From positions 2,304,001-2,368,000 of the forward strand of contig CP000071.1 of assembly GCA_000002445.1 (NCBI GenBank): a DNA stretch of 64,000 nt, read 5' to 3'. The position numbers and the translations under genes are program-made. The notes below the pieces were generated by a model that was given only the letters and a program-made list of their open reading frames with translations, was not told the origin of the DNA and ran no database searches. This DNA comes from Trypanosoma brucei. Lineage: Eukaryota. This document shows positions 1 to 29,201 of the stretch, in pieces (positions within the stretch are counted from its first letter, which is position 1; each line of letters starts with the position of its first letter).

Positions 1-3000
1 GACTGGGTTTTATGTACCTGAAGGGCGTTTCTTTCGGCGATAAGGAGTATAAGCTGACACTTAAGGTAATGTCGATTATGGGCCGTAAATTGTGCGGTGT
101 TTTCGAATTAGACAGCTCTACTGATGGAAGGGCTTCTGATGATGATTTTGAGGCTGCATGGAAAAGGTTTGCTCCCACGATGCCACAAGGTGTAATTGTG
201 TTTGGTTCGCCAATTGAGGATACGAAGAGGTTCCTGTTGAAGTTTTTGGGGAGCAATGAATTGAGAGGTGCTTATATATTAATTCCTTCTATGCTTCAAT
301 ATGTTATTATAAACAGTTGGATGAAGGAGTTGGCCGTAAAGAATTTTGTGCCTGAGAGAGTGATACTGACGGGTCCGAGTCCACTTGCAAATGATAATGA
401 ATACATAGCAGTACGGAAGTTTCAGACTGATATGGAGAAGTACCTGGAAACAAATGGGAAACTTAATGGTCACAATTATGAAAAGGGTCACTTTTATGAT
501 CACAGTACTGACGGAGAATTGATGGTGCACGGATGGATTGTGGGCGAGGTCTTGTGGCGTACACTGGGAAGTCGTGAATCGCTGAAAAACCGTACAACTT
601 ACATGAACTCTCTGTACAACCAGCGTCGGTATGTTATCGATGATCTTGTGATTGGTGATTTTGGTGGTGAATGTGAGGGGAAGGCTGGTCAGCGTGGAGC
701 TGCATGCAAATGTAATCAAGGTGGAAATGTTGTTTACATGAAGAGGATGGGAACTGATCGGAATCTACATCCTGTGAAGGAGGGTGTAGTGACTCTCGCT
801 TCATCACGCTGCTATACGAATCTCTTACAACTGTATGCCCCATTGAATGGTATAATGTTTCGACTAGAAGACAATCCATTGGCGCAGCGGATTACAGAGG
901 AATATCGCGATGGCGCCTCCCTCGTTGTTGGAAAGGGCCAATTGGGTCAAGGTGATCGCTTCTTTTTGCATGAACTGAATTCGACATCGAGTGCGACAAA
1001 GCACAACATGTTAGAGGAGGTTAAAGAGCGTGTTGTGACGGCTGTGTTCGGTGTTGTGGATGATGCGCTACTGTCGATGACAGATATGACATTTATTGAT
1101 CCCATTCCTCTCAGTCCCAGGTTGAAACACCCCGGAAGGAATGCGTTGCATTTGTCTCCAACAATTGAGCAGCAGATTTTTGTAATGGTGGAGCGTGTTG
1201 TGGTTCCGAATTCCTGGGGGAGTGTGCATGCCATTGTTCGCAGTAGTGATGCACGTGGAATAAAATCTGTTCTTCGAAAGACTTTTTGGGCACTTGGTGG
1301 GTCGCTGGGTGCTTTCGACGAAGTTACCGACGGTGAAAGTGTGAAGAGTTTGTTGCCGCATAGCGGCTTCGTTCTCGTTATTGGTCTGACTGAAGCTGAT
1401 ATTACTGCAATTGCTGAGCATCTTGACAATCACAGGGAAGTGCGTGTATTTGCGTTATTCTTCGATGTGGCACTGCTGTACAGTGAGTTTGTGAAGGTAT
1501 TCAAAAAGCATCCGCAAGCTGCCGAGCGGTTACTATTCGCAACAAGCCTACCACACTGGGCAGACAACAATACGACATCCGAGACGGTTCAGGAATTTCA
1601 CAGGGACGTGGGGAATGAGAGTAAATGGACTCCACTGGCGCTACTTGGGTATGCGACTGCACGTGCAATGGAAAGTGTTGTGTTGCAAACGGGGCGTGTG
1701 AACTCAGAAGAGCTTATCAACACTATATTCAGTCAGTCTGTAATTGTAGCGGATGACATGTGGTATGGACCCTTTGAGGACAGTTGTTCCAATAGCCGCT
1801 GGTCATCAGCGAAAGACTGCATTGTGAATTACGGTGCGACACATATTTCCGTGTGGTCCATGGCTCGTGTGTTGAATCCTTCCGTACCTCCTGTTAGTGG
1901 AGTAGCAACACCATCAATACGTTACTACAAAGATGGATTGAATATGACTGAGGAAGAATTTATTGGCACAATTGTGGGTACCATTTTGTGTTTGATAGCA
2001 CTTGTGCTGATAGTAATGCTTATGCGGAAATGTATGCGTGGGGATACTCGCGATAACGAGAACGCACCAAGAGAATTGACAGACCCCGTAACGCTAATAT
2101 TCACTGACATCGAGAGCAGCACTGCGCAGTGGGCAGCACACCCTGAGCTTATGCCTGATGCCGTTGCAACACATCACCGCCTAATTCGCTCATTGATTTC
2201 CAAGTATGGATGCTATGAAGTGAAGACTGTTGGAGATTCTTTTATGATTGCATGCAAGAGCCCTTTCGCTGCTACGCAATTAGCGTGTGACATGCAACGA
2301 TGCTTTTTAGAACATGATTGGAAGACTGATGTGTTTGATACGTCTTATCGTGAGTTTGAGCGGCAGCGTGCGGAAGATGATGGGGATTATGTTCCACCCA
2401 CTGGCCATCTTGACCCTGATGTTTACAGTCGGTTGTGGAATGGACTGCGAGTGCGTGTTGGAATTCACACCGGGTTGTGTGATATTCGGCATGATGAAGT
2501 GACGAAAGGATATGACTTTTACGGTCGTACATCGAATATGGCAGCACGGACTGAGAGCATTGCTAATGGGGGGCAGGTGCTGTTGACACGTCCGACATAC
2601 CTTTCATTGAGTACTTCGGAGCGTGAGCAATTAAATGTGACTGCATTGGGTGATGTGCCATTGCGTGGTGTACCCAAACCTGTGGAGATGTACCAATTGA
2701 ATGCGGTACCCGGAAGGACATTTACTACACTGCGACTTGACCATGAGGTTGCTGATGACGAAGATACGAGTGTTTCTTGCAGTGATGGGAGTTCCATTGG
2801 TGCAGTTCTCAGTGATGCCGCTCAACAGGTTGTTGCTTGCGTTGAAGCACTACTTGGTGCATTCCCTACTGCGCAGCATAAGAAATTACTTATGCCATTT
2901 TGTAACCGATGGGGAGTTTCGTTACCTTATAATGTTTCTGATACGTGGGATGCAACCACGTGCCGTAATGTTACTCGCCTGCTTGCCGCGAGGGTTGGTC

Positions 3001-3206
3001 GTGTTGTGGATTTTGGGACGAAGAATACTCATGACAGTGTACAATTCTCTGAAAGACGCTCGGGAACTTTTCCGTCCAGGTTAGCTGCCGCTGTTGATCT
3101 CGTAAGCATCCCTTCAACTTCTACCTGTATTCAATCCAGCTGCAGTATTATATATATGAATGTGCCAGATGATGATGATACCAGCAAATATTCCCCTAAG
3201 CATTGA
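1..3206 (+). CDS. GRESAG4: Receptor-type adenylate cyclase (ESAG4/GRESAG4 family), copy 1. The 5' end lies outside the window and the stop is at 3204-3206. It has the ectodomain, a TM helix (FIGTIVGTILCLIALVLIVMLM) and a class III cyclase domain (LIFTDIESST...YEVKTVGDSFMIACKS...RVGIHTGL...GRTSNMAARTES).
   Basis: The ORF 12..3206 aligns colinearly with aa ~235-1267 of the full copies downstream. The frame is open from position 1. The cyclase catalytic motifs are intact. The tail variant ...SGTFPSRLAAAVDLVSIPSTSTCIQSSCSIIYMNVPDDDDTSKYSPKH is specific to this copy. Confidence 0.9.
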   Translation, partial: LGFMYLKGVSFGDKEYKLTLKVMSIMGRKLCGVFELDSSTDGRASDDDFEAAWKRFAPTMPQGVIVFGSPIEDTKRFLLKFLGSNELRGAYILIPSMLQYVIINSWMKELAVKNFVPERVILTGPSPLANDNEYIAVRKFQTDMEKYLETNGKLNGHNYEKGHFYDHSTDGELMVHGWIVGEVLWRTLGSRESLKNRTTYMNSLYNQRRYVIDDLVIGDFGGECEGKAGQRGAACKCNQGGNVVYMKRMGTDRNLHPVKEGVVTLASSRCYTNLLQLYAPLNGIMFRLEDNPLAQRITEEYRDGASLVVGKGQLGQGDRFFLHELNSTSSATKHNMLEEVKERVVTAVFGVVDDALLSMTDMTFIDPIPLSPRLKHPGRNALHLSPTIEQQIFVMVERVVVPNSWGSVHAIVRSSDARGIKSVLRKTFWALGGSLGAFDEVTDGESVKSLLPHSGFVLVIGLTEADITAIAEHLDNHREVRVFALFFDVALLYSEFVKVFKKHPQAAERLLFATSLPHWADNNTTSETVQEFHRDVGNESKWTPLALLGYATARAMESVVLQTGRVNSEELINTIFSQSVIVADDMWYGPFEDSCSNSRWSSAKDCIVNYGATHISVWSMARVLNPSVPPVSGVATPSIRYYKDGLNMTEEEFIGTIVGTILCLIALVLIVMLMRKCMRGDTRDNENAPRELTDPVTLIFTDIESSTAQWAAHPELMPDAVATHHRLIRSLISKYGCYEVKTVGDSFMIACKSPFAATQLACDMQRCFLEHDWKTDVFDTSYREFERQRAEDDGDYVPPTGHLDPDVYSRLWNGLRVRVGIHTGLCDIRHDEVTKGYDFYGRTSNMAARTESIANGGQVLLTRPTYLSLSTSEREQLNVTALGDVPLRGVPKPVEMYQLNAVPGRTFTTLRLDHEVADDEDTSVSCSDGSSIGAVLSDAAQQVVACVEALLGAFPTAQHKKLLMPFCNRWGVSLPYNVSDTWDATTCRNVTRLLAARVGRVVDFGTKNTHDSVQFSERRSGTFPSRLAAAVDLVSIPSTSTCIQSSCSIIYMNVPDDDDTSKYSPKH

Positions 3207-3967
3207 AATATGTGTCCATTATTGCCAGAATAATTGGATAAGGTTCAATGAAAGATCTGTGCATGTTTCTTGTTCGATATTGGATGTTTTCGATAATATT
3301 CTTTTTAGGTTATATTTTCCACTTCTATGTATACACGGTATCCTCCTCACATGTTGGGTGCTTTCCATATTCGTGTGTTCCGCTTAGCTAGTGATTAAAG
3401 CACTTATTGAAGCAAACCCACTTTTCGTTTGTTGTTATAAAGTGGGGGATGTACTTATTTTCTCCATACTCTCACTGTGTGAAGCGTTATTTTTCTTGTT
3501 TCCCACTTCCGGTGAGCGGGTGTCAGGCAAAATGCACTGACCTCCTATATTAATGAAAATCGATGCATTCCCGTGCTGGACAGATAAGCCATCGTATTAT
3601 TAACTTCTAATGTTGCTGTTGGTACAACATATCAGTGTTGTTCACTTTGCTTTCCTTTACTATTATGTTGAAATGGTTTATTGTTTTTTTCTTTTTGTGT
3701 GCATATATCTGTATATGTGTTTCGATATACCGTCACCACTCTACCACGTTGATGGATTGGGGAATGGCTACTGATTGATTAATGCATGGTTTTTTGTCAC
3801 TTTAATAACAACATTGTATTCCATGATGGCTTTCAGCAACTGACCCTTGTGTACAATTTCCTGTTTATTTCCCTCTACTGACACAAATCTTTTTTACTAA
3901 TATCTTTTCCTTCTTTTATCACTTTCCAGGACTTGACAAGCCAAATATGTGAGGCTGGCTATTGCAT
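3207..3967. repeat. Intergenic 3'-flank element A, variant A1. It is repeated again at 4465..5225.
   Basis: It is near-identical to 4465..5225 (same strings, e.g. gtgggggatgtacttattttctccatactctcactgtgtgaagcg...ccggtgagcgggtgtcagg). Its 3' ~450 bp is shared with all other inter-cyclase spacers. It ends in a polypyrimidine tract followed by ...ctttccag. Confidence 0.75.
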
Positions 3968-4464
3968 TTGGAAGGACATTTGCTACACTGCGACTTAACC
4001 ATGAGGTTGCTGATGACGAAGATACGAGTGTTTCTTGCAGTGATGGGAGTTCCATTGGTGCAGTTCTCAGTGATGCCGCTCATCAGGCCGTTGCTTTTAT
4101 TGAAGCACTACTTGGTGCATTCCCTACTGCGCAGCATAAGAAATTACTTATGCCATTTTGTAACCGATGGGGAGTTTCGGCGCCTTATAATGTTTCTGAT
4201 ACGTGGGATGCAACCACGTGCCGTAATGTTACTCGCCTGCTTGCCGCGAGGGTTGGTCGTGTTGTGGATTTTGGGACGAAGAATACTCATGACAGTGTAC
4301 AATCCTTTGATAGACGCTCGGGAACTTTTCCGTCCAGGTTAGCTGCCGCTGTTGATCTCGTAAGCATCCCTTCAACTTCTACCTGTATTCAATCCAGCTG
4401 CAGTATTATATATATGAATGTGCCAGATGATGATGATACCAGCAAATATTCCCCTAAGCATTGA
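3968..4464 (+). pseudogene. Orphan cyclase 3'-tail remnant (F/T hybrid). The 5' part is F-type (LNHEVADDED...AAHQAVAFIEALL) and the 3' part is identical in type to the copy-1 tail, ending ...IIYMNVPDDDDTSKYSPKH*.
   Basis: ORF 3949..4464 (GTG-initiated in the track) encodes only the last ~170 aa of the cyclase. It is preceded by spacer rather than by the cyclase body. Its downstream flank duplicates the copy-1 flank. Confidence 0.75.
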
Positions 4465-5225
4465 AATATGTGTCCATTATTGCCAGAATAATTGGATAAG
4501 GTTCAATACATGATCTGTGCATGTTTCTTTTTCGATATTGGATGTTTTCGATAATATTCTTTTTAGGTTATATTTTTCACTTCTATGTATACACGGTATC
4601 CTCCTCACATGTTGGGTGCTTTCCATATTCGTGTGTTCCGCCTAGCTAGTGATTAAAGCACTTATTGAAGCAAACCCACTTTTCGTTTGTTGTTATAAAG
4701 TGGGGGATGTACTTATTTTCTCCATACTCTCACTGTGTGAAGCGTTATTTTTCTTGTTTCCCACTTCCGGTGAGCGGGTGTCAGGAAAAATGCACTGACC
4801 TCCTATATTAATGAAAATCGATGCATTCCCGTGCTGGACAGATAAGCCATCGTATTATTAACTTCTAATGTTGCTGTTGGTACAACATATCAGTGTTGTT
4901 CACTTTGCTTTCCTTTACTATTATGTTGAAATGGTTTATTGTTTTTTTCTTTTTGTGTGCATATATCTGTATATGTGTTTCGATATACCGTCACCACTCT
5001 ACCACGTTGATGGATTGGGGAATGGCTACTGATTGATTAATGCATGGTTTTTTGTCACTTTAATAACAACATTGTATTCCATGATGGCTTTCAGCAACTG
5101 ACCCTTGTGTACAATTTCCTGTTTATTTCCCTCTACTGACACAAATCTTTTTTACTAATATCTTTTCCTTCTTTTATCACTTTCCAGGACTTGACAAGCC
5201 AAATATGTGAGACTGGCTATTGCAT
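4465..5225. repeat. Second copy of the intergenic element A1.
   Basis: The sequence is colinear and near-identical with 3207..3967. Confidence 0.75.
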
Positions 5226-5491
5226 TTGGAAGGACATTTGCTACACTGCGACTTAACCATGAGGTTGCTGATGACGAAGATACGAGTGTTTCTTGCAGTG
5301 ATGGGAGTTCCATTGGTGCAGTTCTCAGTGATGCCGCTTATCAGGCCGTTGCTTTTATTGAAGCACTACTTGGTGCATTCCCTACTGCGCAGCGTAAGAA
5401 ATTACTTATGCCATTTTGTAACCGATGGGGAGTTTCGGCGCCTCGTAATGTTTCTGATACGTGGGATGCAACCACGTGCCGTAATGTTACA
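5226..5491 (+). pseudogene. F fragment. This is an orphan ~266-bp copy of the cyclase 3'-tail coding region (homologous to ~8922..9188 of the next gene). It diverges after ...TTCRNVT into VTCV* and abuts the trans-splice region of copy 2.
   Basis: ORF 5207..5506 translates to RTFATLRLNHEVADDEDTSVSCSDGSS...NVSDTWDATTCRNVTVTCV*. The same fragment recurs before every array copy. Confidence 0.75.
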
Positions 5492-5506: not shown

Positions 5507-5640
5507 TTGAATTTCAACTGCACTCTCTTCTGCTCCCTTTCGTGCCCTTACTTTATTGTTGTCTATTATCATTATTATTATTATTCTCTCATTTCTCTCC
5601 TTTAAGACTTACGAATTCCTCAAGTCAAGTCACCAGTGTT
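5507..5640 (+). promoter_or_regulatory. Polypyrimidine tract (ctctcttctgctccctttcgtgccc...tctctcatttctctcctttaag) with AG dinucleotides. This is a putative spliced-leader trans-splice acceptor region and 5' UTR of cyclase copy 2.
   Basis: A pyrimidine run is followed by AG ~35-40 nt upstream of the first in-frame ATG. This is the kinetoplastid trans-splicing architecture (established knowledge). The exact acceptor is not determinable from sequence. Confidence 0.5.
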
Positions 5641-10481: not shown

Positions 10482-10615
10482 TTGAATTTCAACTGCACTC
10501 TCTTCTGCTCCCTTTCGTGCCCTTACTTTATTGTTGTCTATTATCATTATTATTATTATTCTCTCATTTCTCTCCTTTAAGACTTACGAATTCCTCAAGT
10601 CAAGTCACCAGTGTT
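10482..10615 (+). promoter_or_regulatory. Polypyrimidine/AG putative trans-splice acceptor region and 5' UTR of copy 3.
   Basis: It is homologous to 5507..5640. Confidence 0.5.
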
Positions 10616-13600
10616 ATGGCTTCCTTCATGCGTCTTGTTACTCCACTTGGCGCTGCAGTGGCTTGCAGTCATCTCCTCATGGTTGTGTTACCGCTGCTGT
10701 TACTTATTCCTGGTTTATGTGCTGATAAAGACTGTAACAGTAGCAGTGTAACGGTGAGGGTGTATAATTTGTTGTACGGTTCCGACGTATCAAAAGCAAT
10801 CTATGAACCCGTCATTGCTGGTTTCAATGCCTCTATCGAAGCGCACAAAGGGGATTTACCGGCAAATGTGTGCATAGAGGTGAAATATGTGCATCACGAT
10901 GGCAATGTTATTGAGGTTGGGAATATAAATAGGATTGTTGAAGAAGACAAAGGAAATATGAATGAACTGCCCATTGTGCTGGGACCTTTTGGTGATTGGG
11001 AAACTCGTAATATTTCCTCGGAACTTGAAGAGTTGAAGGTAGTTGCCTTTTCTCCCTTTACTGGATCTTCGGATGTGCGTGTGTGGAAAAAGAATCTGTA
11101 CTTCCTTACGGCATCGCCTGTTGCACAGGTGCTTGCACTAATTCGTTATGCAGTGAGTCAATTGAGGCTTCAGCGACTGGGTTTTATGTACCTGAAGGGT
11201 GTGTTTTATGGCGATAAGGAGTATAAGCTGACACTTAAGGTAATGTCGATTATGGGCCGTAAATTGTGCGGTGTTTTCGAATTAGACAGCTCTACTGATG
11301 GAAGGGCTTCTGATGATGATTTTGAGGCTGCATGGAAAAGGTTTGCTCCCACGATGCCACAAGGTGTAATTGTGTTTGGTTCGCCAATTGAGGATACGAA
11401 GAGGTTCCTGTTGAAGTTTTTAGGGAGCAATGAATTGAGAGGTGCTTATATATTAATTCCTTCTATGCTTCAATATGTTATCAAAAACAGTTGGATGAAG
11501 AAGTTGGCCGTAAAGAATTTTGTGCCTGAGAGAGTGATACTGACGGGTCTGACTCCACTTGCAAATGATAATGAATACATAGCAGTACGGAAGTTTCAGA
11601 CTGATATGGAGAAGTACCTGGAAAAAAATGGGAAACTTAATGGTCACAATTATGAAAAGGGTCACTTTTATGATCACAGTACTGACGGAGAATTGATGGT
11701 GCACGGATGGATCACAGGCGAGGTCTTGTGGCGTACACTGGGAAGTCGTGAATTACTGTGCAACCGTACAGCTTACATGAACTCTCTGTACAACCAGCGT
11801 CGGTATGTTATCGATGATCTTGTGATTGGTGATTTTGGTGGTGAATGTGAGGGGAAGGCTGGTCAGCGTGGAGCTGCATGCAAATGTAATCAAGGTGGAA
11901 ATGTTGTTTACATGAAGAGGATGGGAACTGATCGGAATCTACATCCTGTGAAGGAGGGTGTAGTGACTCTCGCTTCATCACGCTGCTATACGAATCTCTT
12001 ACAACTGTATGCCCCATTGAATGGTATAATGTTTCGACTGGAAGACAATCCATTGGCGCAGCGGATTACAGAGGAATATCGCGATGGCGCCTCCCCCGTT
12101 GTTGGAAAGGGCCAATTGGGTCAAGGTGATCGCTTCTTTTTGCATGAACTGAATTCGACATCGAGTGCGACAAAGCACAACATGTTAGAGGAGGTTAAAG
12201 AGCGTGTTGTGACGGCCGTGTTCGGTGTTGTGGATGACGCGCTACTGTCGATGACAGATATGACATTTATTGATCCCATTCCTCTCAGTCCCAGGTTGAA
12301 ACACCCCGGAAGGAATGTGTTGCATTTGTCTCCAACAATTGAGCAGCAGATTTTTGTAATGGTGGAGCGTGTTGTGGTTCCGAATTCCTGGGGGAGTGTG
12401 CATGCCATTGTTCGCAGTAGTGATGCACGTGGAATAAAATCTGTTCTTCGAAAGACTTTTTGGGCACTTGGTGGGTCGCTGGGTGCTTTCGACGAAGTTA
12501 CCGACGGTGAAAGTGTGAAGAGTTTGTTACCGCATAGCGGTTTCGTTCTCGTTATTGGTCTAACTGAAGCTTATATTACTGCAATTGCTGAGCATCTTGA
12601 CAATCACAGGGAAGTGCGTGTATTTGTGTTATTCTTCGATGTGGCACTGCTGTACAGTGAGTTTGTGAAGGTATTCAAAAAGCATCCGCAAGCTGCCGAG
12701 CGGTTACTATTCGCAACAAGCCTACCACACTGGGCAGACAACAATACGACATCCGAGACGGTTCAGGAATTTCACAGGGACGTGGGGAATGAGAGTAAAT
12801 GGACTCCACTGGCGCTGCTTGGGTATGCGACTGCACGTGCAATGGAAAGTGTTGTGTTGCAAATGGGGCGTGTGAACTCAGAAGAGCTTATCAACACTAT
12901 ATTCAGTCAGTCTGTAATTGTAGCGGATGACATGTGGTATGGACCTTTTGAGGACAGTTGTTCCAATAGCCGCTGGTCATCAGCGAAAGACTGCATTGTG
13001 AATTACGGTGCGACACATATTTCCGTGTGGTCCATGGCTCGTGTGTTGAATCCTTCCGTACCTCCTGTTAGTGGAGTAGCAACACCATCAATACGTTACT
13101 ACAAAGATGGATTGAATATGACTGAGGAAGAATTTATTGGCACAATTGTGGGTACCATTTTGTGTTTGATAGCACTTGTGCTGATAGTAATGCTTATGCG
13201 GAAATGTATGCGTGGGGATACTCGCGATAACGAGAACGCACCAAGAGAATTGACAGACCCCGTAACGCTAATATTCACTGACATCGAGAGCAGCACTGCG
13301 CAGTGGGCAGCACACCCTGAGATTATGCCTGATGCCGTTGCAACACATCACCGCCTAATTCGCACATTGATTTCCAAGTATGGATGCTATGAAGTGAAGA
13401 CTGTTGGAGATTCTTTTATGATTGCATGCAAGAGCCCTTTCGCTGCTACGCAATTAGCGTGTGACCTGCAACGATGCTTTTTAGAACATGATTGGAAGAC
13501 TGATGTGTTTGATACGTCTTATCGTGAGTTTGAGCGGCAGCGTGCGGAAGATGATGGGGATTATGTTCCACCCACTGGCCATCTTGACCCTGATGTTTAC

Positions 13601-14413
13601 AGTCGGTTGTGGAATGGACTGCGAGTGCGTGTTGGAATTCACACCGGGTTGTGTGATATTCGGCATGATGAAGTGACGAAAGGATATGACTTTTACGGTC
13701 GTACATCGAATATGGCAGCACGGACTGAGAGCATTGCTAATGGCGGGCAGGTGCTGTTGACACGTTCGACATACCTTTCATTGAGTACTTCGGAGCGTGA
13801 GCAATTAAATGTGACTGCATTGGGTGATGTGCCATTGCGTGGTGTACCCAAACCTGTGGAGATGTACCAATTGAATGCGGTACCCGGAAGGACATTTACT
13901 ACACTGCGACTTGACCATGAGGTTGCTGATGACGAAGATACGAGTGTTTCTTGCAGTGATGGGAGTTCCATTGGTGCAGTTCTCAGTGATGCCGCTCATC
14001 AGGTTGTTGCTTTTATTGAAGCACTACTTGGTGCATTCCCTACTGCGCAGCGTAAGAAATTACTTATGCCATTTTGTAACCGATGGGGAGTTTCGTTACC
14101 TTATAATGTTTCTGATACGTGGGATGCAACCACGTGCCATAATGTTACTCGCCTGCTTGCCGCGAAGGTTGGTCGTGTTGTGGATTTTGGGACGAAGAAT
14201 ACTCATGACAGTGTACAATTCTCTGAAAGACGCTCGGGAACTTTCCCACCTGGATTGGTTGCCTCTGTTTCTGAGGAGGGTAGTTTAGCTTCAACTTCTA
14301 CCTGTATTCAATCCAGCTGCAGTGTTGTGTACATGATGAATGGGCCAGATGATGATGATACCAGCAAATATTCCCCTAGGCATTGCAATATGTGTCCATT
14401 ATTGCCAGAATAA
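10616..14413 (+). CDS. GRESAG4: Receptor-type adenylate cyclase, copy 3 (1265 aa). The N-terminal hypervariable patch is of the beta type (GSDVSKAIY...KYVHHDGNVIEVGNINRIVEEDKGNMNE...WETRNISSELEELKVVAF).
   Basis: ORF 10472..14413, with the first ATG at 10616. The cyclase motifs are intact. Confidence 0.9.
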   Translation: MASFMRLVTPLGAAVACSHLLMVVLPLLLLIPGLCADKDCNSSSVTVRVYNLLYGSDVSKAIYEPVIAGFNASIEAHKGDLPANVCIEVKYVHHDGNVIEVGNINRIVEEDKGNMNELPIVLGPFGDWETRNISSELEELKVVAFSPFTGSSDVRVWKKNLYFLTASPVAQVLALIRYAVSQLRLQRLGFMYLKGVFYGDKEYKLTLKVMSIMGRKLCGVFELDSSTDGRASDDDFEAAWKRFAPTMPQGVIVFGSPIEDTKRFLLKFLGSNELRGAYILIPSMLQYVIKNSWMKKLAVKNFVPERVILTGLTPLANDNEYIAVRKFQTDMEKYLEKNGKLNGHNYEKGHFYDHSTDGELMVHGWITGEVLWRTLGSRELLCNRTAYMNSLYNQRRYVIDDLVIGDFGGECEGKAGQRGAACKCNQGGNVVYMKRMGTDRNLHPVKEGVVTLASSRCYTNLLQLYAPLNGIMFRLEDNPLAQRITEEYRDGASPVVGKGQLGQGDRFFLHELNSTSSATKHNMLEEVKERVVTAVFGVVDDALLSMTDMTFIDPIPLSPRLKHPGRNVLHLSPTIEQQIFVMVERVVVPNSWGSVHAIVRSSDARGIKSVLRKTFWALGGSLGAFDEVTDGESVKSLLPHSGFVLVIGLTEAYITAIAEHLDNHREVRVFVLFFDVALLYSEFVKVFKKHPQAAERLLFATSLPHWADNNTTSETVQEFHRDVGNESKWTPLALLGYATARAMESVVLQMGRVNSEELINTIFSQSVIVADDMWYGPFEDSCSNSRWSSAKDCIVNYGATHISVWSMARVLNPSVPPVSGVATPSIRYYKDGLNMTEEEFIGTIVGTILCLIALVLIVMLMRKCMRGDTRDNENAPRELTDPVTLIFTDIESSTAQWAAHPEIMPDAVATHHRLIRTLISKYGCYEVKTVGDSFMIACKSPFAATQLACDLQRCFLEHDWKTDVFDTSYREFERQRAEDDGDYVPPTGHLDPDVYSRLWNGLRVRVGIHTGLCDIRHDEVTKGYDFYGRTSNMAARTESIANGGQVLLTRSTYLSLSTSEREQLNVTALGDVPLRGVPKPVEMYQLNAVPGRTFTTLRLDHEVADDEDTSVSCSDGSSIGAVLSDAAHQVVAFIEALLGAFPTAQRKKLLMPFCNRWGVSLPYNVSDTWDATTCHNVTRLLAAKVGRVVDFGTKNTHDSVQFSERRSGTFPPGLVASVSEEGSLASTSTCIQSSCSVVYMMNGPDDDDTSKYSPRHCNMCPLLPE

Positions 14414-15170
14414 TTGGATAAGGTTCAATACATGATCTGTGCATGTTTCTTTTTAGATATTGGATGTTTTCGATAATATTCTTTTTAGGTTATATTTTCC
14501 ACTTCTATGTATGCTCAGCATCCTCCTCACATGTTGGGTGGTTTTAAAATTTTTCCTTAATTGATTAATTTTTTTTAGGGACGTTATTGACCTCTAATAA
14601 TAATAAACTTAGTGTGTTTACTTGTTTTTAATCCTTTAAGATGTGGCACGGTAGCACTCATGTTACTACTGATGCTCCGGCCCATAGTTTATGATATGTG
14701 TTCTTTTCCACCCCCGGTGAGTGGGTGTCAGGCAAAATGCACTGATATCCTCTTTTGGTGGGAATTTATAAGTTACCATGCTGGACAGTTGAGCCACCGT
14801 ATTATTAACTTCTAACGTTGCTGTTGGTACAACATATCAGTGTTGTTCACTTTGCTTTCCTTTACTATTATATTGAAATGGTTTATTGTTTTTTTCTTTT
14901 TGTGCATATATATGTATATGTGTTTCGATATACCGTCACCACTCTACCACGTTGATGGATTGGGGAATGGCTACTGATTGATTAATGCATGGTTTTTTGT
15001 CACTTTAATAACAACATTGTATTCCATGATGGCTTTCAGCAACTGACCCTTGTGTGTAATTTCCTGTTTATTTCCCTCTACTGACACAAATCTTTTTTAC
15101 TAATATCTTTTCCTTCTTTTATCACTTTCCAGGACTTGACAAGCCAAATATGTGAGGCTGGCTATTGCAT
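14414..15170. repeat. Intergenic 3'-flank element A. The 5' part is a third variant and the 3' part is conserved.
   Basis: It aligns to 23069..23825 over its whole length, and to 9445..10200 only in the 3' two-thirds. Confidence 0.7.
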
Positions 15171-15436
15171 TCGGAAGGACATTTACTACACTGCGACTTA
15201 ACCATGAGGTTGCTGATGACGAAGATACGAGTGTTTCTTGCAGTGATGGGAGTTCCATTGGTGCAGTTCTCAGTGATGCCGCTTATCAGGCCGTTGCTTT
15301 TATTGAAGCACTACTTGGTGCATTCCCCACTGCGCAGCGTAAGAAATTATTTATGCCATTTTGTAACCGATGGGGAGTTTCGGCGCCTCGTAATGTTTCT
15401 GATACGTGGGATGCAACCACGTGCCATAATGTTACA
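15171..15436 (+). pseudogene. F fragment upstream of copy 4.
   Basis: ORF 15152..15451. Confidence 0.75.
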
Positions 15437-15451
15437 GTTACTTGTGTGTAA

Positions 15452-15585
15452 TTGAATTTCAACTGCACTCTCTTCTGCTCCCTTTCGTGCCCTTACAGTA
15501 TTGTTGTCTATTATCATTATTATCATTATTCTCTCATTTCTCTTCTTTAAGACTTACGAATTCCTCAAGTCAAGTCACCAGTGTT
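15452..15585 (+). promoter_or_regulatory. Polypyrimidine/AG putative trans-splice acceptor region of copy 4.
   Basis: It is homologous to 5507..5640. Confidence 0.5.
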
Positions 15586-18500
15586 ATGGCTTCCTTCATG
15601 CGTCTTGTTACTCCACTTGGCGCTGCAGTGGCTTGCAGTCATCTCCTCATGGTTGTGTTACCGCTGCTGTTACTTATTCCTGGTTTATGTGCTGAGGAGT
15701 GTAACAGCAGTGGTAAAGTGTCAGTGAAAGTGCACAGTTTGTTGTACAGCTCTAAGATATCAAGTAAAATCTATGAACCCGTCATTGCTGGTTTCAATGC
15801 CTCGCTACATGCGCATAATGATGATTTACCGGCAAATGTGTGCATAGAGGTCGAACATGTTCATGCCAGAAGTGATGAGGATTACGTCTCATATTTAAAG
15901 AATAAAATTGATGGAGACGCTGCTGTACAAAATAAGAGTGAACTGCCCATTGTGCTGGGACCTTTTGGTGATGAGACTACTCTCCATCTCACCAGGGAAC
16001 TTGAGAAGTTTGAAATAGTGGCCTTTTCTCCCTTTACTGGATCTTCGGATGTGCGTGTGTGGAAAAAGAATCTGTACTTCCTTACGGCATCGCCTGTTGC
16101 AGAGGTGCTTGCACTAATTCGTTATGCTGTGAGTCAATTGAGGCTTCAGCGACTGGGTTTTATGTACCTGAAGGGCGTTTCTTTCGGCGATAAGGAGTAT
16201 AAGCTGACACTTAAGGTAATGTCGATTATGGGCCGTAAATTGTGCGGTGTTTTCGAATTAGACAGCTCTACTGATGGAAGGGCTTCTGATGATGATTTTG
16301 AGGCTGCATGGAAAAGGTTTGCTCCCACGATGCCACAAGGTGTAATTGTGTTTGGTTCGCCAATTGAGGATACGAAGAGGTTCCTGATGAAGTTTTTAGG
16401 GAGCAATGAATTGAGAGGTGCTTATATATTAATTCTTTCTATGCTTCAATATGTTATCAAAAACAGTTGGATGAAGGAGTTGGCCGTAAAGAATTTTGTG
16501 CCTGAGAGAGTGATACTGACGGGTCCGAGTCCACTTGCAAATGATAATGAATACATAGCGGTACAGAAGTTTCAGCCTGATATGGAGAAGTACCTGGAAA
16601 AAAGTGGAAACTTAATGGTCACAATTATGAAAAGGGTCACTTTTACCAGCACAGTACTGACGGAGAATTGATGCTGCACGGATGGATCACAGGCGAGGTC
16701 TTGTGGCGTACACTGGGAAGTCGTGAATTACTGTGCAACCGTACAACTTACATGAACTCTCTGTACAACCAGCGTCGGTATGTTATCGATGGTCTTGTGA
16801 TTGGTGATTTTGGTGGTGAATGTGAGGGGAAGGCTGGTCAGCGTGGAGCTGCATGCAAATGTAATCAAGGTGGAAATGTTGTTTACATGAAGAGGATGGG
16901 AACTGATCGGAATCTACATCCTGTGAAGGAGGGTGTAGTGACTCTCGCTTCATCACGCTGCTATACGAATCTCTTACAACTGTATGCCCCATTGAATGGT
17001 ATAATGTTTCGACTGGAAGACAATCCATTGGCGCAGCGGATTACAGAGGAATATCGCGATGGCGCCTCCCTCGTTGTTGGAAAGGGCCAATTGGGTCAAG
17101 GTGATCGCTTCTTTTTGCATGAACTGAATTCGACATCGAGTGCGACAAAGCACAACATGTTAGAGGAGGTTAAAGAGCGTGTTGTGACGGCTGTGTTCGG
17201 TGTTGTGGATGACGCGCTACTGTCGATGACAGATATGACATTTATTGATCCCATTCCTCTCAGTCCCAGGTTGAAACACCCCGGAAGGAATGTGTTGCAT
17301 TTGTCTCCAACAATTGAACAGCAGATTTTTGTAATGGTGGAGCGTGTTGTGGTTCCGAATTCCTGGGGGAGTGTGCATGCCATTGTTCGCAGTAGTGATG
17401 CACGTGGAATAAAATCTGTTCTTCGAAAGACTTTTTGGTCACTTGGTGGGTCGCTGGGTGCTTTCGACGAAGTTACCGACGGTGAAAGTGTGAAGAGTTT
17501 GTTACCGCATAGCGGTTTCGTTCTCGTTATTGGTCTAACTGAAGCTGATATTACTGCAATTGCTGAGCATCTTGACAATCACAGGGAAGTGCGTGTATTT
17601 GTGTTATTCTTCGATGTGGCACTGCTGTACAGTGAGTTTGTGAAGGTATTCAAAAAGCATCCGCAAGCTGCCGAGCGGTTACTATTCGCAACAAGCCTAC
17701 CACACTGGGCAGACAACAATACGACATCCGAGACGGTTCAGGAATTTCACAGGGACGTGGGGATTCAGAGTAAATGGACTCCACTGGCGCTGCTTGGGTA
17801 TGCGACTGCACGTGCAATGGAAAGTGTTGTGTTGCAAATGGGGCGTGTGAACTCAGAAGAGCTTATCAACACTATATTCAGTCAGTCTGTAATTGTAGCG
17901 GATGACATGTGGTATGGACCCTTTGAGGACAGTTGTTCCAATAGCCGCTGGTCATCAGCGAAAGACTGCATTGTGAATTACGGTGCGACACATATTTCCG
18001 TGTGGTCCATGGCTCGTGTGTTGAATCCTTCCGTACCTCCTGTTAGTGGAGTAGCAACACCATCAATACGTTACTACAAAGATGGATTGAATATGACTGA
18101 GGAAGAATTTATTGGCACAATTGTGGGTACCATTTTTTGTTTGATAGCACTTGTGCTGATAGTAATGCTTATGCGGAAATGTATGCGTGGGGATACTCGC
18201 GATAACGAGAACGCACCAAAAGAATTGACAGACCCCGTAACGCTAATATTCACTGACATCGAGAGCAGCACTGCGCAGTGGGCAGCACACCCTGAGCTTA
18301 TGCCTGATGCCGTTGCAACACATCACCGCCTAATTCGCACATTGATTTCCAAGTATGGATGCTATGAAGTGAAGACTGTTGGAGATTCTTTTATGATTGC
18401 ATGCAAGAGCCCTTTCGCTGCTACGCAATTAGCGTGTGACCTGCAACGATGCTTTTTAGAACATGATTGGAAGACTGATGTGTTTGATACGTCTTATCGT

Positions 18501-19139
18501 GAGTTTGAGCGGCAGCGTGCGGAAGATGATGGGGATTATGTTCCACCCACTGGCCATCTTGACCCTGATGTTTACAGTCGGTTGTGGAATGGACTGCGAG
18601 TGCGTGTTGGAATCCACGCCGGGTTGTGTGATATTCGGCATGATGAAGTGACGAAAGGATATGACTTTTACGGTCGTACATCGAATATGGCAGCACGGAC
18701 TGAGAGCATTGCTAATGGCGGGCAGGTGCTGTTGACACGTTCGACATACCTTTCATTGAGTACTTCGGAGCGTGAGCAATTAAATGTGACTGCATTGGGT
18801 GATGTGCCATTGCGTGGTGTACCCAAACCTGTGGAGATGTACCAATTGAATGCGGTACCCGGAAGGACATTTACTACACTGCGACTTGACCATGAGGTTG
18901 CTGATGACGAAGATACGAGTGTTTCTTGCAGTGATGGGAGTTCCATTGGTGCAGTTCTCAGTGATGCCGCTCATCAGGTTGTTGCTTTTATTGAAGCACT
19001 ACTTGGTGCATTCCCCACTGCGCAGCGTAAGAAATTACTTATGCCATTTTGTAACCGATGGGGAGTTTCGGCACCTTATAATGTTTCTGATACGTGGGAT
19101 GCAACCACGTGCCATAATGTTACAGTCACTTGTGTGTAA
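15586..19139 (+). pseudogene. GRESAG4: Receptor-type adenylate cyclase copy 4, disrupted. A -1 frameshift lies in a homopolymer at ~16610-16616 (ggaaaaaagtggaaac, where the other copies read ggaaaaaaatgggaaac). The C-terminus is replaced by the F-type ending ...TTCHNVTVTCV*. The gene then runs directly into the next copy's splice region with no 3' flank.
   Basis: The ORF track splits the copy into 15442..16671 and 16668..19139 in different frames. The unit length here is 3688 bp, against ~4970 elsewhere. Confidence 0.8.
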
Positions 19140-19273
19140 TTGAATTTCAACTGCACTCTCTTCTGCTCCCTTTCGTGCCCTTACAGTATTGTTGTCTATT
19201 ATCATTATTATCATTATTCTCTCATTTCTCTTCTTTAAGACTTACGAATTCATCAAGTCAAGTCACCAGTGTT
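19140..19273 (+). promoter_or_regulatory. Polypyrimidine/AG putative trans-splice acceptor region of copy 5.
   Basis: It is homologous to 5507..5640 and immediately follows the F-type end of the pseudogene. Confidence 0.5.
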
Positions 19274-22200
19274 ATGGCTTCCTTCATGCGTCTTGTTACT
19301 CCACTTGGCGCTGCAGTGGCTTGCAGTCATCTCCTCATGGTTGTGTTACCGCTGCTGTTACTTATTCCTGGTTTATGTGCTGATAAAGACTGTAACAGTA
19401 GCAGTGTAACGGTGAGGGTGTATAATTTGTTGTACGGCTCCGACGTATCAAAAGCAATCTATGAACCCGTCATTGCTGGTTTCAATGCCTCGCTACATGC
19501 GCATAATGATGATTTACCGGCAAATGTGTGCATAGAGGTCGAACATGTTCATGCCAGAAGTGATGAGGATTACGTCTCATATTTAAAGAATAAAATTGAT
19601 GGAGATGCTGCTGTACAAAATAAGAGTGAACTGCCCATTGTGCTGGGACCTTTTGGTGATTGGGAAACTCGTAATATTTCCTCGGAACTTGAAGAGTTGA
19701 AGGTAGTTGCCTTTTCTCCCTTTACTGGATCTTCGGATGTGCGTGTGTGGAAAAAGAATCTGTACTTCCTTACGGCATCACCTATTGCACAGGTGCTTGC
19801 ACTAATTCGTTATGCTGTGAGTCAATTGAGGCTTCAGCGACTGGGTTTTATGTACCTGAAGGGTGTGTTTTATGGCGATAAGGAGTATAAGCTGACACTT
19901 AAGGTAATGTCGATTATGGGCCGTAAATTGTGCGGTGTTTTCGAATTAGACAGCTCTACTGATGGAAGGGCTTCTGATGATGATTTTGAGGCTGCATGGA
20001 AGAGGTTTGCTCCCACGATGCCACAAGGTGTAATTGTGTTTGGTTCGCCAATTGAGGATACGAAGAGGTTCCTGTTGAAGTTTTTAGGGAGCAATGAATT
20101 GAGAGGTGCTTATATATTAATTCCTTCCATGCTTCAATATGTTATCAAAAACAGTTGGATGAAGAAGTTGGCCGTAAAGAATTTTGTGCCTGAGAGAGTG
20201 ATACTGACGGGTCTGACTCCACTTGCAAATGATAATGAATACATAGCAGTACGGAAGTTTCAGACTGATATGGAGAAGTACCTGGAAACAAATGGGAAAC
20301 TTAATGGTCACAATTATGAAAAGGGTCACTTTTACCAGCACAGTACTGACGGAGAATTGATGGTGCACGGATGGATCACAGGCGAGGTCTTGTGGCGTAC
20401 ACTGGGAAGTCGTGAATTACTGTGCAACCGTACAGCTTACATGAACTCTCTGTACAACCAGCGTCGGTATGTTATCGATGATCTTGTGATTGGTGATTTT
20501 GGTGGTGAATGTGAGGGGAAGGCTGGTCAGCGTGGAGCTGCATGCAAATGTAATCAAGGTGGAAATGTTGTTTACATGAAGAGGATGGGAACTGATCGGA
20601 ATCTACATCCTGTGAAGGAGGGTGTAGTGACTCTCGCTTCATCACGCTGCTATACGAATCTCTTACAACTGTATGCCCCATTGAATGGTATAATGTTTCG
20701 ACTAGAAGACAATCCATTGGCTCAGCGGATTACAGAGGAATATCGCGATGGCGCCTCCCTCGTTGTTGGAAAGGGCCAATTGGGTCAAGGTGATCGCTTC
20801 TTTTTGCATGAACTGAATTCGACATCGAGTGCGACAAAGCACAACATGTTAGAGGAGGTTAAAGAGCGTGTTGTGACGGCTGTGTTCGGTGTTGTGGATG
20901 ACGCGCTACTGTCGATGACAGATATGACATTTATTGATCCCATTCCTCTCAGTCCCAGGTTGAAACACCCCGGAAGGAATGTGTTGCATTTGTCTCCAAC
21001 AATTGAACAGCAGATTTTTGTAATGGTGGAGCGTGTTGTGGTTCCGAATTCCTGGGGGAGTGTGCATGCCATTGTTCGCAGTAGTGATGCACGTGGAATA
21101 AAATCTGTTCTTCGAAAGACTTTTTGGGCACTTGGTGGGTCGCTGGGTGCTTTCGACGAAGTTACCGACGGTGAAAGTGTGAAGAGTTTGTTACCGCATA
21201 GCGGTTTCGTTCTCGTTATTGGTCTAACTGAAGCTGATATTACTGCAATTGCTGAGCATCTTGACAATCACAGGGAAGTGCGTGTATTTGTGTTATTCTT
21301 CGATGTGGCACTGCTGTACAGTGAGTTTGTGAAGGTATTCAAAAAGCATCCGCAAGCTGCCGAGCGGTTACTATTCGCAACAAGCCTACCACACTGGGCA
21401 GACAACAATACGACATCCGAGACGGTTCAGGAATTTCACAGGGACGTGGGGAATGAGAGTAAATGGACTCCACTGGCGCTACTTGGGTACGCGACTGCAC
21501 GTGCAATGGAAAGTGTTGTGTTGCAAATGGGGCGTGTGAACTCAGAAGAGCTTATCAACACTATATTCAGTCAGTCTGTAATTGTAGCGGATGACATGTG
21601 GTATGGACCCTTTGAGGACAGTTGTTCCAATAGCCGCTGGTCATCAGCGAAAGACTGCATTGTGAATTACGGTGCGACACATATTTCCGTGTGGTCCATG
21701 GCTCGTGTGTTGAATCCTTCCGTACCTCCTGTTAGTGGAGTAGCAACACCATCAATACGTTACTACAAAGATGGATTGAATATGACTGAGGAAGAATTTA
21801 TTGGCACAATTGTGGGTACCATTTTGTGTTTGATAGCACTTGTGCTGATAGTAATGCTTATGCGGAAATGTATGCGTGGGGATACTCGCGATAACGAGAA
21901 CGCACCAAAAGAATTGACAGACCCCGTAACGCTAATATTCACTGACATCGAGAGCAGCACTGCGCAGTGGGCAGCACACCCTGAGCTTATGCCTGATGCC
22001 GTTGCAACACATCACCGCCTAATTCGCACATTGATTTCCAAGTATGGATGCTATGAAGTGAAGACTGTTGGAGATTCTTTTATGATTGCATGCAAGAGCC
22101 CTTTCGCTGCTACGCAATTAGCATGTGACCTGCAACGATGCTTTTTAGAACATGATTGGAAGACTGATGTGTTTGATACGTCTTATCGTGAGTTTGAGCG

Positions 22201-24240: not shown

Positions 24241-27200
24241 ATGGCTTCCTTCATGCGTCTTGTTACTCCACTTGGCGCTGCAGTGGCTTGCAGTCATCTC
24301 CTCATGGTTGTGTTACCGCTGCTGTTACTTATTCCTGGTTTATGTGCTGATAAAGACTGTAACAGTAGCAGTGTAACGGTGAGGGTGTATAATTTGTTGT
24401 ACAGCTTTAAGATATCAAGTAAAATCTATGAACCCGTCATTGCTGGTTTCAATGCCTCGCTACATGCGCATAATGATGATTTGCCGGCAAATGTGTGCAT
24501 AGAGGTCGAACATGTTCATGCCAGAAGCGATGAGGATTACGTCTCATATTTAAAGAATAAAATTGATGGAGATGCTGCTGTACAAAATAAGAGTGAACTG
24601 CCCATTGTGCTGGGACCTTTTGGTGATGTGACTACTCTCCATCTCACCAGGGAACTTGAGAAGTTTGAAATAGTGGCCTTTTCTCCCTTTACTGGATCTT
24701 CGGATGTGCGTGTGTGGAAAAAGAACCTGTACTATCTTACGGCATCGCCTGTTGCACAGGTGCTTGCACTAATTCGTTATGCAGTGAGTCAATTGAGGTT
24801 TCAGCGACTGGGTTTTATGTACCTGAAGGGTGTGTTTTATGGCGATAAGGAGTATAAGCTGACACTTAAGGTAATGTCGATTATGGGCCGTAAATTGTGC
24901 GGTGTTTTCGAATTAGACAGCTCTACTGATGGAAGGGCTTCTGATGATGATTTTGAGGCTGCATGGAAAAGGTTTGCTCCCACGATGCCACAAGGTGTAA
25001 TTGTGTTTGGTTCGCCAATTGAGGATACGAAGAGGTTCCTGATGAAGTTTTTAGGGAGCAATGAATTGAGAGGTGCTTATATATTAATTCCTTCCATGCT
25101 TCAATATGTTATCAAAAACAGTTGGGTGAAGGAGTTGGCCGTAAAGAATTTTGTGCCTGAGAGAGTGATACTGACGGGTCCGAGTCCACTTGCAAATGAT
25201 AATGAATACATAGCAGTACGGAAGTTTCAGACTGATATGGAGAAGTACCTGGAAACAAATGGGAAACTTAATGGTCACAATTATGAAAAGGGTCACTTTT
25301 ACCAGCACAGTACTGACGGAGAGTTGATGGTGCACGGATGGATCACAGGCGAGGTCTTGTGGCGTACACTGGGAAGTCGTGAATTACTGTGCAACCGTAC
25401 AGCTTACATGAACTCTCTGTACAACCAGCGTCGGTATGTTATCGATGATCTTGTGATTGGTGATTTTGGTGGTGAATGTGAGGGGAAGGCTGGTCAGCGT
25501 GGAGCTGCATGCAAATGTAATCAAGGTGGAAATGTTGTTTACATGAAGAGGATGGGAACTGATCGGAATCTACATCCTGTGAAGGAGGGTGTAGTGACTC
25601 TCGCTTCATCACGCTGCTATACGAATCTCTTACAACTGTATGCCCCATTGAATGGTATAATGTTTCGACTGGAAGACAATCCATTGGCGCAGCGGATTAC
25701 AGAGGAATATCGCGATGGCGCCTCCCCCGTTGTTGGAAAGGGCCAATTGGGTCAAGGTGATCGCTTCTTTTTGCATGAACTGAATTCGACATCGAGTGCG
25801 ACAAAGCACAACATGTTAGAGGAGGTTAAAGAGCGTGTTGTGACGGCCGTGTTCGGTGTTGTGGATGACGCGCTACTGTCGATGACAGATATGACATTTA
25901 TTGATCCCATTCCTCTCAGTCCCAGGTTGAAACACCCCGGAAGGAATGTGTTGCATTTGTCTCCAACAATTGAGCAGCAGATTTTTGTAATGGTGGAGCG
26001 TGTTGTGGTTCCGAATTCCTGGGGGAGTGTGCATGCCATTGTTCGCAGTAGTGATGCACGTGGAATAAAATCTGTTCTTCGAAAGACTTTTTGGGCACTT
26101 GGTGGGTCGCTGGGTGCTTTCGACGAAGTTACCGACGGTGAAAGTGTGAAGAGTTTGTTACCGCATAGCGGTTTCGTTCTCGTTATTGGTCTAACTGAAG
26201 CTGATATTACTGCAATTGCTGAGCATCTTGACAATCACAGGGAAGTGCGTGTATTTGTGTTATTCTTCGATGTGGCACTGCTGTACAGTGAGTTTGTGAA
26301 GGTATTCAAAAAGCATCCGCAAGCTGCCGAGCGGTTACTATTCGCAACAAGCCTACCACACTGGGCAGACAACAATACGACATCCGAGACGGTTCAGGAA
26401 TTTCACAGGGACGTGGGGAATGAGAGTAAATGGACTCCACTGGCGCTACTTGGGTACGCGACTGCACGTGCAATGGAAAGTGTTGTGTTGCAAATGGGGC
26501 GTGTGAACTCAGAAGAGCTTATCAACACTATATTCAGTCAGTCTGTAATTGTAGCGGATGACATGTGGTATGGACCCTTTGAGGACAGTTGTTCCAATAG
26601 CCGCTGGTCATCAGCGAAAGACTGCATTGTGAATTACGGTGCGACACATATTTCCGTGTGGTCCATGGCTCGTGTGTTGAATCCTTCCGTACCTCCTGTT
26701 AGTGGAGTAGCAACACCATCAATACGTTACTACAAAGATGGATTGAATATGACTGAGGAAGAATTTATTGGCACAATTGTGGGTACCATTTTGTGTTTGA
26801 TAGCACTTGTGCTGATAGTAATGCTTATGCGGAAATGTATGCGTGGGGATACTCGCGATAACGAGAACGCACCAAAAGAATTGACAGACCCCGTAACGCT
26901 AATATTCACTGACATCGAGAGCAGCACTGCGCAGTGGGCAGCACACCCTGAGCTTATGCCTGATGCCGTTGCAACACATCACCGCCTAATTCGCACATTG
27001 ATTTCCAAGTATGGATGCTATGAAGTGAAGACTGTTGGAGATTCTTTTATGATTGCATGCAAGAGCCCTTTCGCTGCTGCGCAATTAGCGTGTGACCTGC
27101 AGCGGTGCTTTTTAGAACATGATTGGAAGACTGATGTGTTTGATACGTCTTATCGTGAGTTTGAGCGGCAGCGTGCGGAAGATGATGGGGATTATGTTCC

Positions 27201-29067: not shown

Positions 29068-29201
29068 TTGAATTTCAACTGCACTCTCTTCTGCTCCCTT
29101 TCGTGCCCTTACTTTATTGTTGTCTATTATCATTATTATCATTATTCTCTCATTTCTCTCCTTTAAGACTTACGAATTCCTCAAGTCAAGTCACCAGTGT
29201 T
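29068..29201 (+). promoter_or_regulatory. Polypyrimidine/AG putative trans-splice acceptor region of copy 7.
   Basis: It is homologous to 5507..5640. Confidence 0.5.

Follow-up and report, generated by a model that had tools for sequence, protein, structure and literature searches.

Organisation of the GRESAG4 array

The window, i.e., the whole 64,000-bp stretch of Trypanosoma brucei DNA that was analysed, begins with a tandem array: seven copies of a gene of about 1265 codons lie head to tail in its first 33 kb, as read from the ORF listing. Pfam searches assign to these genes the receptor adenylate cyclase domain set PF25495, PF25493, and PF00211, all three of which are found in copy 5, and the top database matches for the array copies are GRESAG4 proteins of Trypanosoma brucei brucei TREU927. 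Copies 1, 2, 5, and 6 are 100% identical to TREU927 proteins AAZ13548, AAZ13549, AAZ13551, and AAZ13552, respectively, and the ORF of copy 3 (10616-14413) is Tb927.8.7900 (2314616-2318413) by the coordinates given in Kolev et al. 2010, Table S1. Because the copy 3 coordinates match and these proteins are identical, the window can be placed at Tb927_08_v4:2304001-2368000, and the array is that of the GRESAG4 receptor adenylate cyclases Tb927.8.7860-7940 on chromosome 8 of T. brucei TREU927. The gene order downstream fits the published one, with a 1758-codon ORF corresponding to Tb927.8.7950 and an H+-pyrophosphatase (PF03030) corresponding to Tb927.8.7980. When Tb927.8.7860, which lies upstream of the window, is counted, the TREU927 array has eight copies. 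Going by the gene numbering, copy 4 (15586..19139) is probably Tb927.8.7910, and copy 5, directly downstream of the joint described below, is probably Tb927.8.7920. The genes, repeat blocks, and processing signals discussed here are on the forward strand.

Start codons of the array were read at 5641, 10616, 15586, 19274, 24241, and 29202, which gives successive units of 4975, 4970, 3688, 4967, and 4961 bp. Unit 4, which the original prediction had singled out as short at 3688 bp, is indeed missing about 1282 bp by this start-codon spacing.

Several other features of the array can be noted. The coding starts (for instance 10616-11200 and 15586-16000) are far more variable between copies over their first 200-400 bp than over the remainder, so that variation between copies is concentrated in the N-terminal extracellular part; copy 4 and copy 3, for example, are 73-84% identical over the first 200-400 bp and 99-100% further on. 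Copy 7 (29202-33110) is the most divergent, with about 84% identity at the protein level, and its C-terminal tail is unrelated at 32778-32952; homology returns around the stop codon and ends about 155 nt past it. Every array unit also carries a 160-codon ORF in antisense (minus strand; 947-1429, 7152-7634, 17096-17578, 20785-21267, 25752-26234, and 30710-31192), which most likely reflects the repeated sequence and not a gene.

Direct repeats in the cyclase tails and spacers

A 264-bp block was found twice in each normal unit (units 2, 3, 5, and 6) by BLAST, MAFFT, and repeat search, at a spacing of 1272-1287 bp. We refer to the block in the tail of the CDS as T and to the block in the spacer, directly upstream of the next gene's splice region, as F. 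T blocks start at 2711, 8916, 13885, 22549, 27516, and 32468, and encode protein residues ~1090-1177; F blocks start at 5227, 10202, 15172, 23827, and 28788. Copy 7 is not followed by an F block. The block matches have E-values of 1e-126 or lower, which rules out a chance match. In unit 3, taken here as the reference, the upstream repeat is the T block of copy 3 (Tb927.8.7900; 13885..14148), inside the CDS, and the downstream repeat is the F block (15172..15435), a spacer copy of the CDS tail; by MAFFT and repeat search the two are 96% identical at a spacing of 1287 bp. The reading frame of this F block is open, with no in-frame ATG near its start.

Identities are 96.2% between T blocks, 96.8% between F blocks, and 95.3% between T and F, and mosaic variants are common to both classes: T5, for instance, carries the F-type GGCGCCTCGT, and F6 carries the T5-type motif CCGTCGAATTATTGAT. 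Since the similarity between T and F is close to that within either class and the variants are mosaic, we conclude that T and F trade sequence by gene conversion. The T/F repeats are found in T. b. gambiense and T. b. equiperdum as well. In the paralogous cyclase array on chromosome 4 of T. b. gambiense, the spacers hold no copy of the CDS tail, and the irregular spacers there are assembly gaps; the T/F architecture may thus be particular to the chromosome 8 array.

The deletion joint at the end of copy 4

The junction between copies 4 and 5 holds one 264-bp block only (X4, 18860..19123). Its left flank is of the coding type (Tl, 18820) and its right flank of the spacer type (Fr, 19124), and it is the only Tl-Fr joint in the window by BLAST, MAFFT, flank typing, and repeat search. 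There is no filler DNA at the joint in the MAFFT alignment. The copy 4 reading frame runs through the block and ends ...AAHQVVAFIEALLGAFPTAQRKKLLMPFCNRWGVSAPYNVSDTWDATTCHNVTVTCV*, its last codons (..TVTCV) and the TAA at 19137-19139 being contributed by the F-type AGTCACTTGTGTGTAA (19124..19139). The polypyrimidine/AG region of copy 5 and then its ATG at 19274 follow directly after this stop, and the end of the ORF is 46 nt before the first AG of the copy 5 splice region. The claim that copy 4 finishes in an F-type VTVTCV* abutting the splice region of copy 5 is thus borne out by a plain reading of the sequence.

What is missing agrees in length with the repeat. The shortfall of 1273-1287 bp (3688 bp vs 4961-4975 bp) matches the T-to-F spacing of 1272-1287 bp. 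Alignment to unit 3 identifies the normal counterpart of the missing segment as 14149..15171, which comprises the last 88 codons of the gene (the stop ends at 14413) and a 758-bp spacer with the 3' UTR, and in the CDS alignment the final 88 codons of copy 4 have been swapped for five F-type codons. With a single Tl-Fr hybrid block and a missing length equal to the repeat spacing, the data agree with the original prediction that copy 4 lost its tail and flank through an exchange between T and F.

Homologous recombination between T and F would account for this arrangement by the loss of one repeat and all DNA between the two, i.e., the final 88 codons and their stop codon together with the 3' UTR and spacer, with one hybrid block as the remnant. 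Unequal exchange between sister chromatids or homologues, single-strand annealing, loop-out after a break, and replication slippage are candidate routes, all of which would yield the same product. The exchange may have taken place within one unit, or between the T of one unit and the F of a later unit, which would have removed whole units too. We hold it to be highly probable that the copy 4 deletion is the scar of recombination between the T and F direct repeats in a pseudogene; the route is something we infer, as it cannot be read from the product.

The original prediction had also read the exchange point from the visible switch in the translation, ...HNV|TVTCV, and had proposed an alignment of the junction against T and F to locate the crossover. 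In that alignment, run here, the visible switch (19124) is simply the end of homology, and the crossover itself probably lies 55-140 bp upstream. X4 follows T3/T6 up to column 121 of the block (T-type TT at columns 120-121, 'HQVV') and F5 from column 211 (GC at columns 211-212, 'SAPY'), and MAFFT independently opens its gap at 18980. The exchange point is therefore most likely inside the block, at about 18981..19070, an approximate interval resting on few SNPs because T and F share polymorphisms. 'SAPY', which had been taken as gene-type, is here spacer-type, as T1, T2, T3, and T6 read SLPY and F5 and F6 read SAPY; T5, however, also has GC at columns 211-212, and no T/F site is strictly diagnostic. 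Over its full length, X4 has the same identity, 98.9%, to T3 as to F5.

Loss of the copy 4 reading frame

Assigned to the GRESAG4 receptor adenylate cyclases by Pfam, its ORFs, and protein identity, copy 4 is a frameshifted pseudogene. The CDS alignment of copies 2-7 locates a 1-bp deletion (GGG -> GG, 16606..16608), in agreement with the frameshift already ascribed to copy 4, and this deletion near 16607 is the only copy 4 indel that is not a multiple of three, the tail deletion aside. A premature stop follows at 16669-16671, after 361 codons, and the ORF is split at 16671/16668. The 3' ORF has PF25493 and PF00211, and in a comparison with the neighbouring copies' TREU927 proteins, copy 4 shows 93-98% identity. 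The family domains are thus present, but the uninterrupted ORF of ~1250-1270 codons expected of a functional ESAG4/GRESAG4 member is not. Because copy 4 is already inactivated by the 1-bp frameshift, the joint has no function.

Could the truncation nevertheless be a selected functional variant, in which a shorter C-terminal tail and a minimal 3' UTR alter localisation or expression, the frameshift having arisen later or being an error of sequencing? Past the frameshift, the catalytic and ligand-binding domains remain intact, at 97-98% identity to active copies; use of a poly(A) site at ~19142, homologous to a mapped one (see below), would leave the stop codon in place; and truncation is frequent among the receptor cyclases of T. 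b. brucei, affecting 21% of them (PMC7719234). The 1-bp deletion, however, leads to a stop after 361 codons, and in the protein cluster to which the neighbouring copies belong, no copy 4 protein was found among the entries from TREU927. Nor does the sequence identity (96-100% to the neighbours from ~16200 on) help to decide, since ongoing gene conversion homogenises the copies whether they are functional or not, and high identity is expected either way. We regard a functional variant as very improbable and continue to treat copy 4 as a pseudogene.

The duplication in unit 1

The opposite product class is present in the same array. Unit 1 (2711-5490) holds three 264-bp blocks, at 2711, 3969, and 5227, with a spacing of 1258 bp. 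The middle one, M1 (3969..4232), is a hybrid with a spacer-type left and a coding-type right flank (Fl-Tr), a duplication-class product by MAFFT, flank typing, and repeat search. On either side of it, within 2975..5226, alignment shows two duplicated arms of tail plus spacer (2975-3968 and 4233-5226), which differ from each other by 11 mismatches and no gaps over 994 bp (98.9% identity) but share only 87-90% identity with the corresponding segment in other units. An ORF of 171 codons (3949-4464), with no gene body upstream, is formed by the duplicated tail.

As the arms are 98.9% alike and only 87-90% identical to other units, the unit-1 duplication was made from unit-1 sequence, and since the duplicated arms are of unit-1 type it cannot be the partner of the copy 4 deletion. 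The two rearrangements are independent, and at least two T x F events are recorded in the array as it stands in the sequence. Since neither single-strand annealing nor loop-out can produce a duplication, T and F must be subject to unequal exchange or to an equivalent template switch. A deletion between direct repeats, on the other hand, need not be reciprocal, as single-strand annealing, loop-out, or slippage suffices.

The original prediction had described copy 4 and unit 1 as both outcomes of one mechanism. This stands in so far as unit 1 does hold the opposite product class (Fl-Tr at 3969), but the arm identities show that the two are not partners of one exchange. A literal reciprocal pair, in which one unequal exchange produced both, would fit the mirror-image flanks (Tl-Fr vs Fl-Tr) and the similar sizes (~1282 bp lost vs 1258 bp gained). 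It is at odds, however, with the 98.9% identity of the unit-1 arms to each other against 87-90% to all other units, with the first copies in T. b. equiperdum and T. b. gambiense, whose orthologous sequence is also of unit-1 type, and with the SNP mosaics of the two hybrids, which do not mirror one another; moreover, the products of one exchange segregate to different chromatids. Literal reciprocity, which we consider extremely unlikely, was dropped because the duplicated segment is not of the deleted unit's type (87-90%), and the two rearrangements are treated below as separate events.

RNA processing signals and the spacer block

Directly after the copy 4 stop, the splice region and 5' UTR of copy 5 (19140..19273, ahead of the ATG at 19274) contain two polypyrimidine tracts by sequence, at 19156-19184 with an AG at 19185-19186 and at 19217-19237 with an AG at 19238-19239. 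The first candidate acceptor (19183-19186; cf. 5550-5553, 10525-10528, and 29111-29114) reads ACAG before copies 4-6 and ACTT before copies 2, 3, and 7. Because the first AG is polymorphic between copies, the second (19238-19239) is likelier to be the conserved acceptor.

Copy 4 mRNA was said in the original prediction to depend on downstream signals for its processing. This is correct in that copy 4 has no 3' UTR of its own, but it does not set copy 4 apart: polyadenylation in trypanosomes is coupled to the downstream trans-splice site, at a median distance of 142 nt, and the same dependence holds for every trypanosome gene (PMC2936537). A poly(A) site inside the copy 4 ORF, placed from this median distance, was considered and then replaced by a projection of the site mapped for Tb927.8.7900. 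The 3'-most poly(A) site of that gene was mapped at 2319454 (Kolev et al. Table S1), i.e., window position 15454, 19 nt past F3, and the F block is accordingly part of the 3' UTR in at least some normal transcripts. The homologue of this site in unit 4 is at about 19142-19144, and 19142 is 3 nt past the TAA. A copy 4 transcript using the ~19142 site would, as projected from the sequence, retain its stop codon and be essentially without a 3' UTR. [quoted passage not shown] Ambiguous mapping within repeated sequence may be the cause.

Every F or M1 block is preceded, at a distance of 40 nt, by a further long polypyrimidine tract ending in an AG (15092-15132 in unit 3), with homologues at 3889, 5147, 10122, 23747, and 28708; the tract is invariant in all units and in the two other subspecies. 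More generally, the distal spacer (from ~14806 to the ATG, including the last ~370 bp before F) is 92-100% conserved, vs 47-90% for the proximal 3' UTR. For Tb927.8.7860, a poly(A) site has been mapped 597 nt after the stop (Kolev et al. Table S1), which is ~120 nt upstream of the AG equivalent to 15132, with the position taken by homology with unit 3. These features suggest that the pre-F tract is a second RNA-processing signal, and F may lie in an alternative 5' UTR or in a separate small transcript. In copy 4, the pre-F tract and its AG are deleted together with the whole 3' UTR.

The F frame is open and free of indels in 10 of the 10 spacer F copies from three subspecies; the pre-F tract with its AG is 99% conserved, the mapped poly(A) site follows F at 19 nt, and F trades variants with T. 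One could imagine from these features that F is a maintained element of the array, as a separately processed RNA or alternative UTR segment, or as a gene-conversion reservoir diversifying the C-terminal region of the cyclases, and a recombination hotspot as a by-product. If this were true, F would be a built-in hotspot that sheds or duplicates gene tails. We consider such a role improbable.

As to how F came to be in the spacer, neither blastn nor tblastx detected homology to the CDS in the part upstream of F. A degenerate copy of the splice region before F was also considered but not supported, as it comes down to a 13-nt match with an alignment score of 26, where shuffled sequence gave up to 30. 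In units 3, 5, and 6, the stretch '110 nt + F block + 5 nt' lies between the two copies of an exact 13-nt direct repeat, CTTGTGTGTAATT (15049-15061/15441-15453, 23704/24096, and 28665/29057); in units 1 and 2, the upstream one differs by two substitutions. Nine matches to CTTGTGTGTAATT were found in the window, where ~0.3 would be expected by chance. By its sequence, the pair resembles a duplication of a target site or microhomology on either side of an insertion that would have created F.

Comparison with other subspecies

The corresponding arrays were compared in T. b. equiperdum OVI (CM010679.1), which has three array copies, and T. b. gambiense DAL972 (FN554971.1), which has at least three, with 100-N gaps. 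Array size therefore varies by strain, from ~8 copies in TREU927 to three in T. b. equiperdum. There is no Tl-Fr joint in the three copies of the T. b. equiperdum array, and the T. b. gambiense array, as assembled with its gaps, has T and F blocks only. A search with the 153-aa junction peptide retrieved distant cyclase fragments only, none of them ending in ...VTVTCV, and look-ups of ORFs from the window by exact protein sequence gave no record. A duplication with the architecture of unit 1 is also seen in T. b. equiperdum OVI, where it lies in the first array copy and its arms are 100% identical (12699-15471 of the stretch examined from that genome). The DAL972 assembly of T. b. gambiense lacks it, although the first copy there has a spacer of the unit-1 type. 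Present in T. b. equiperdum and absent from the T. b. gambiense assembly, the duplication indicates that exchange between T and F either recurs or is polymorphic within the species. Annotation divides the T. b. equiperdum array genes into fragments of 184, 493, 245, 253, and 393 aa, suggesting that the assembly contains indel errors.

Given the repetitive nature of the locus, we also weighed whether the joint could be an artefact of assembly or cloning, with a normal unit 4 from which the 1.28 kb between T4 and F4 was lost through the merging of reads or a deletion in an E. coli clone. The array units are 95-100% identical over long stretches and hard to assemble, the T. b. gambiense assembly of the array is gapped and looks collapsed, and the joint is found in no second assembly, T. 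b. equiperdum having three copies and T. b. gambiense gaps. A single Sanger read, however, can span a 264-bp repeat and its flanks, and a collapse would presumably clash with such reads. Unit 4 also has private changes, namely the frameshift and, at block column 157, a C found in neither T3 nor F5, and a T x F rearrangement of a like class is present in an independent assembly of another subspecies. Taken together, an artefact appears quite improbable, and we retain the reading of X4 as a genuine recombination joint.

Discussion

The locus and the processes at work in it have been described before. The array is Tb80a of Jackson 2007 (BMC Evol Biol 7:54, PMC1855330), where concerted evolution is reported even between T. 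b. brucei and T. b. gambiense and where unequal crossing-over and gene conversion are discussed as mechanisms for T. brucei arrays. Our observations are alike in locus and in the processes involved, i.e., change in copy number and homogenisation between repeats. The part of that paper available to us deals with whole gene copies and UTRs, and within that part the 264-bp copy of the CDS tail in the spacer, the copy 4 deletion, and the unit-1 duplication do not appear. Similarly, Durante et al. 2020 (PMC7719234), in the portion accessible to us, found 21% of T. b. brucei receptor cyclases to be truncated and inferred rapid rearrangement. Copy 4 is one more truncated, pseudogenised member of that family; its breakpoints can be read from the sequence, and neither the T/F repeat nor the two rearrangements are described in the portion of Durante et al. 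in question. That this array undergoes unequal exchange and gene conversion has been published before (PMC1855330), and the mechanism is a textbook one.

What the present analysis contributes is a base-pair account of how one GRESAG4 copy in the reference genome became truncated, and its practical value is small. The 264-bp relic of the CDS tail in the spacers acts as a recurrent recombination substrate, having given rise to the copy 4 deletion and to the unit-1 duplication, the latter also in T. b. equiperdum. For annotation, copy 4 should be recorded as a pseudogene without a 3' UTR of its own. The repeats also matter for the design of tagging, knockout, and read-mapping experiments in the array; Tb927.8.7920, which by its numbering is probably the gene directly after the joint, has served for endogenous tagging. 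The copy 4 joint opens no new biological question, and the sole mildly unusual point is the F block, with its open frame and its position between two processing signals.

Direct repeats of a few hundred bp are efficient substrates for repair, in which one repeat and the intervening DNA are lost and no filler is added. In T. brucei, the Horn and McCulloch laboratories have reportedly studied RAD51-dependent recombination, single-strand annealing, and microhomology-mediated deletion after double-strand breaks. The copy 4 outcome resembles such break-repair deletions in that one repeat and the intervening DNA are gone and there is no filler. Those studies, in contrast, concern induced events, whereas copy 4 is a natural fossil, for which a break would be one possible initiating event.

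A closer parallel in form is offered by the human alpha-globin alleles -alpha3.7 and alpha-alpha-alpha(anti-3.7) and by Hb Lepore and anti-Lepore, in which misaligned short homologous boxes give rise to deletion alleles and complementary duplication alleles, each with a hybrid box. The GRESAG4 array likewise has a deletion class and a duplication class, both with hybrid blocks. Unlike in the globin cases, however, one of the two boxes in a GRESAG4 unit is coding and the other a non-coding relic, and the copy 4 deletion truncates the gene and removes its 3' UTR without creating a hybrid gene. A further difference is that both product classes are found here in one and the same array, as the outcomes of independent events.
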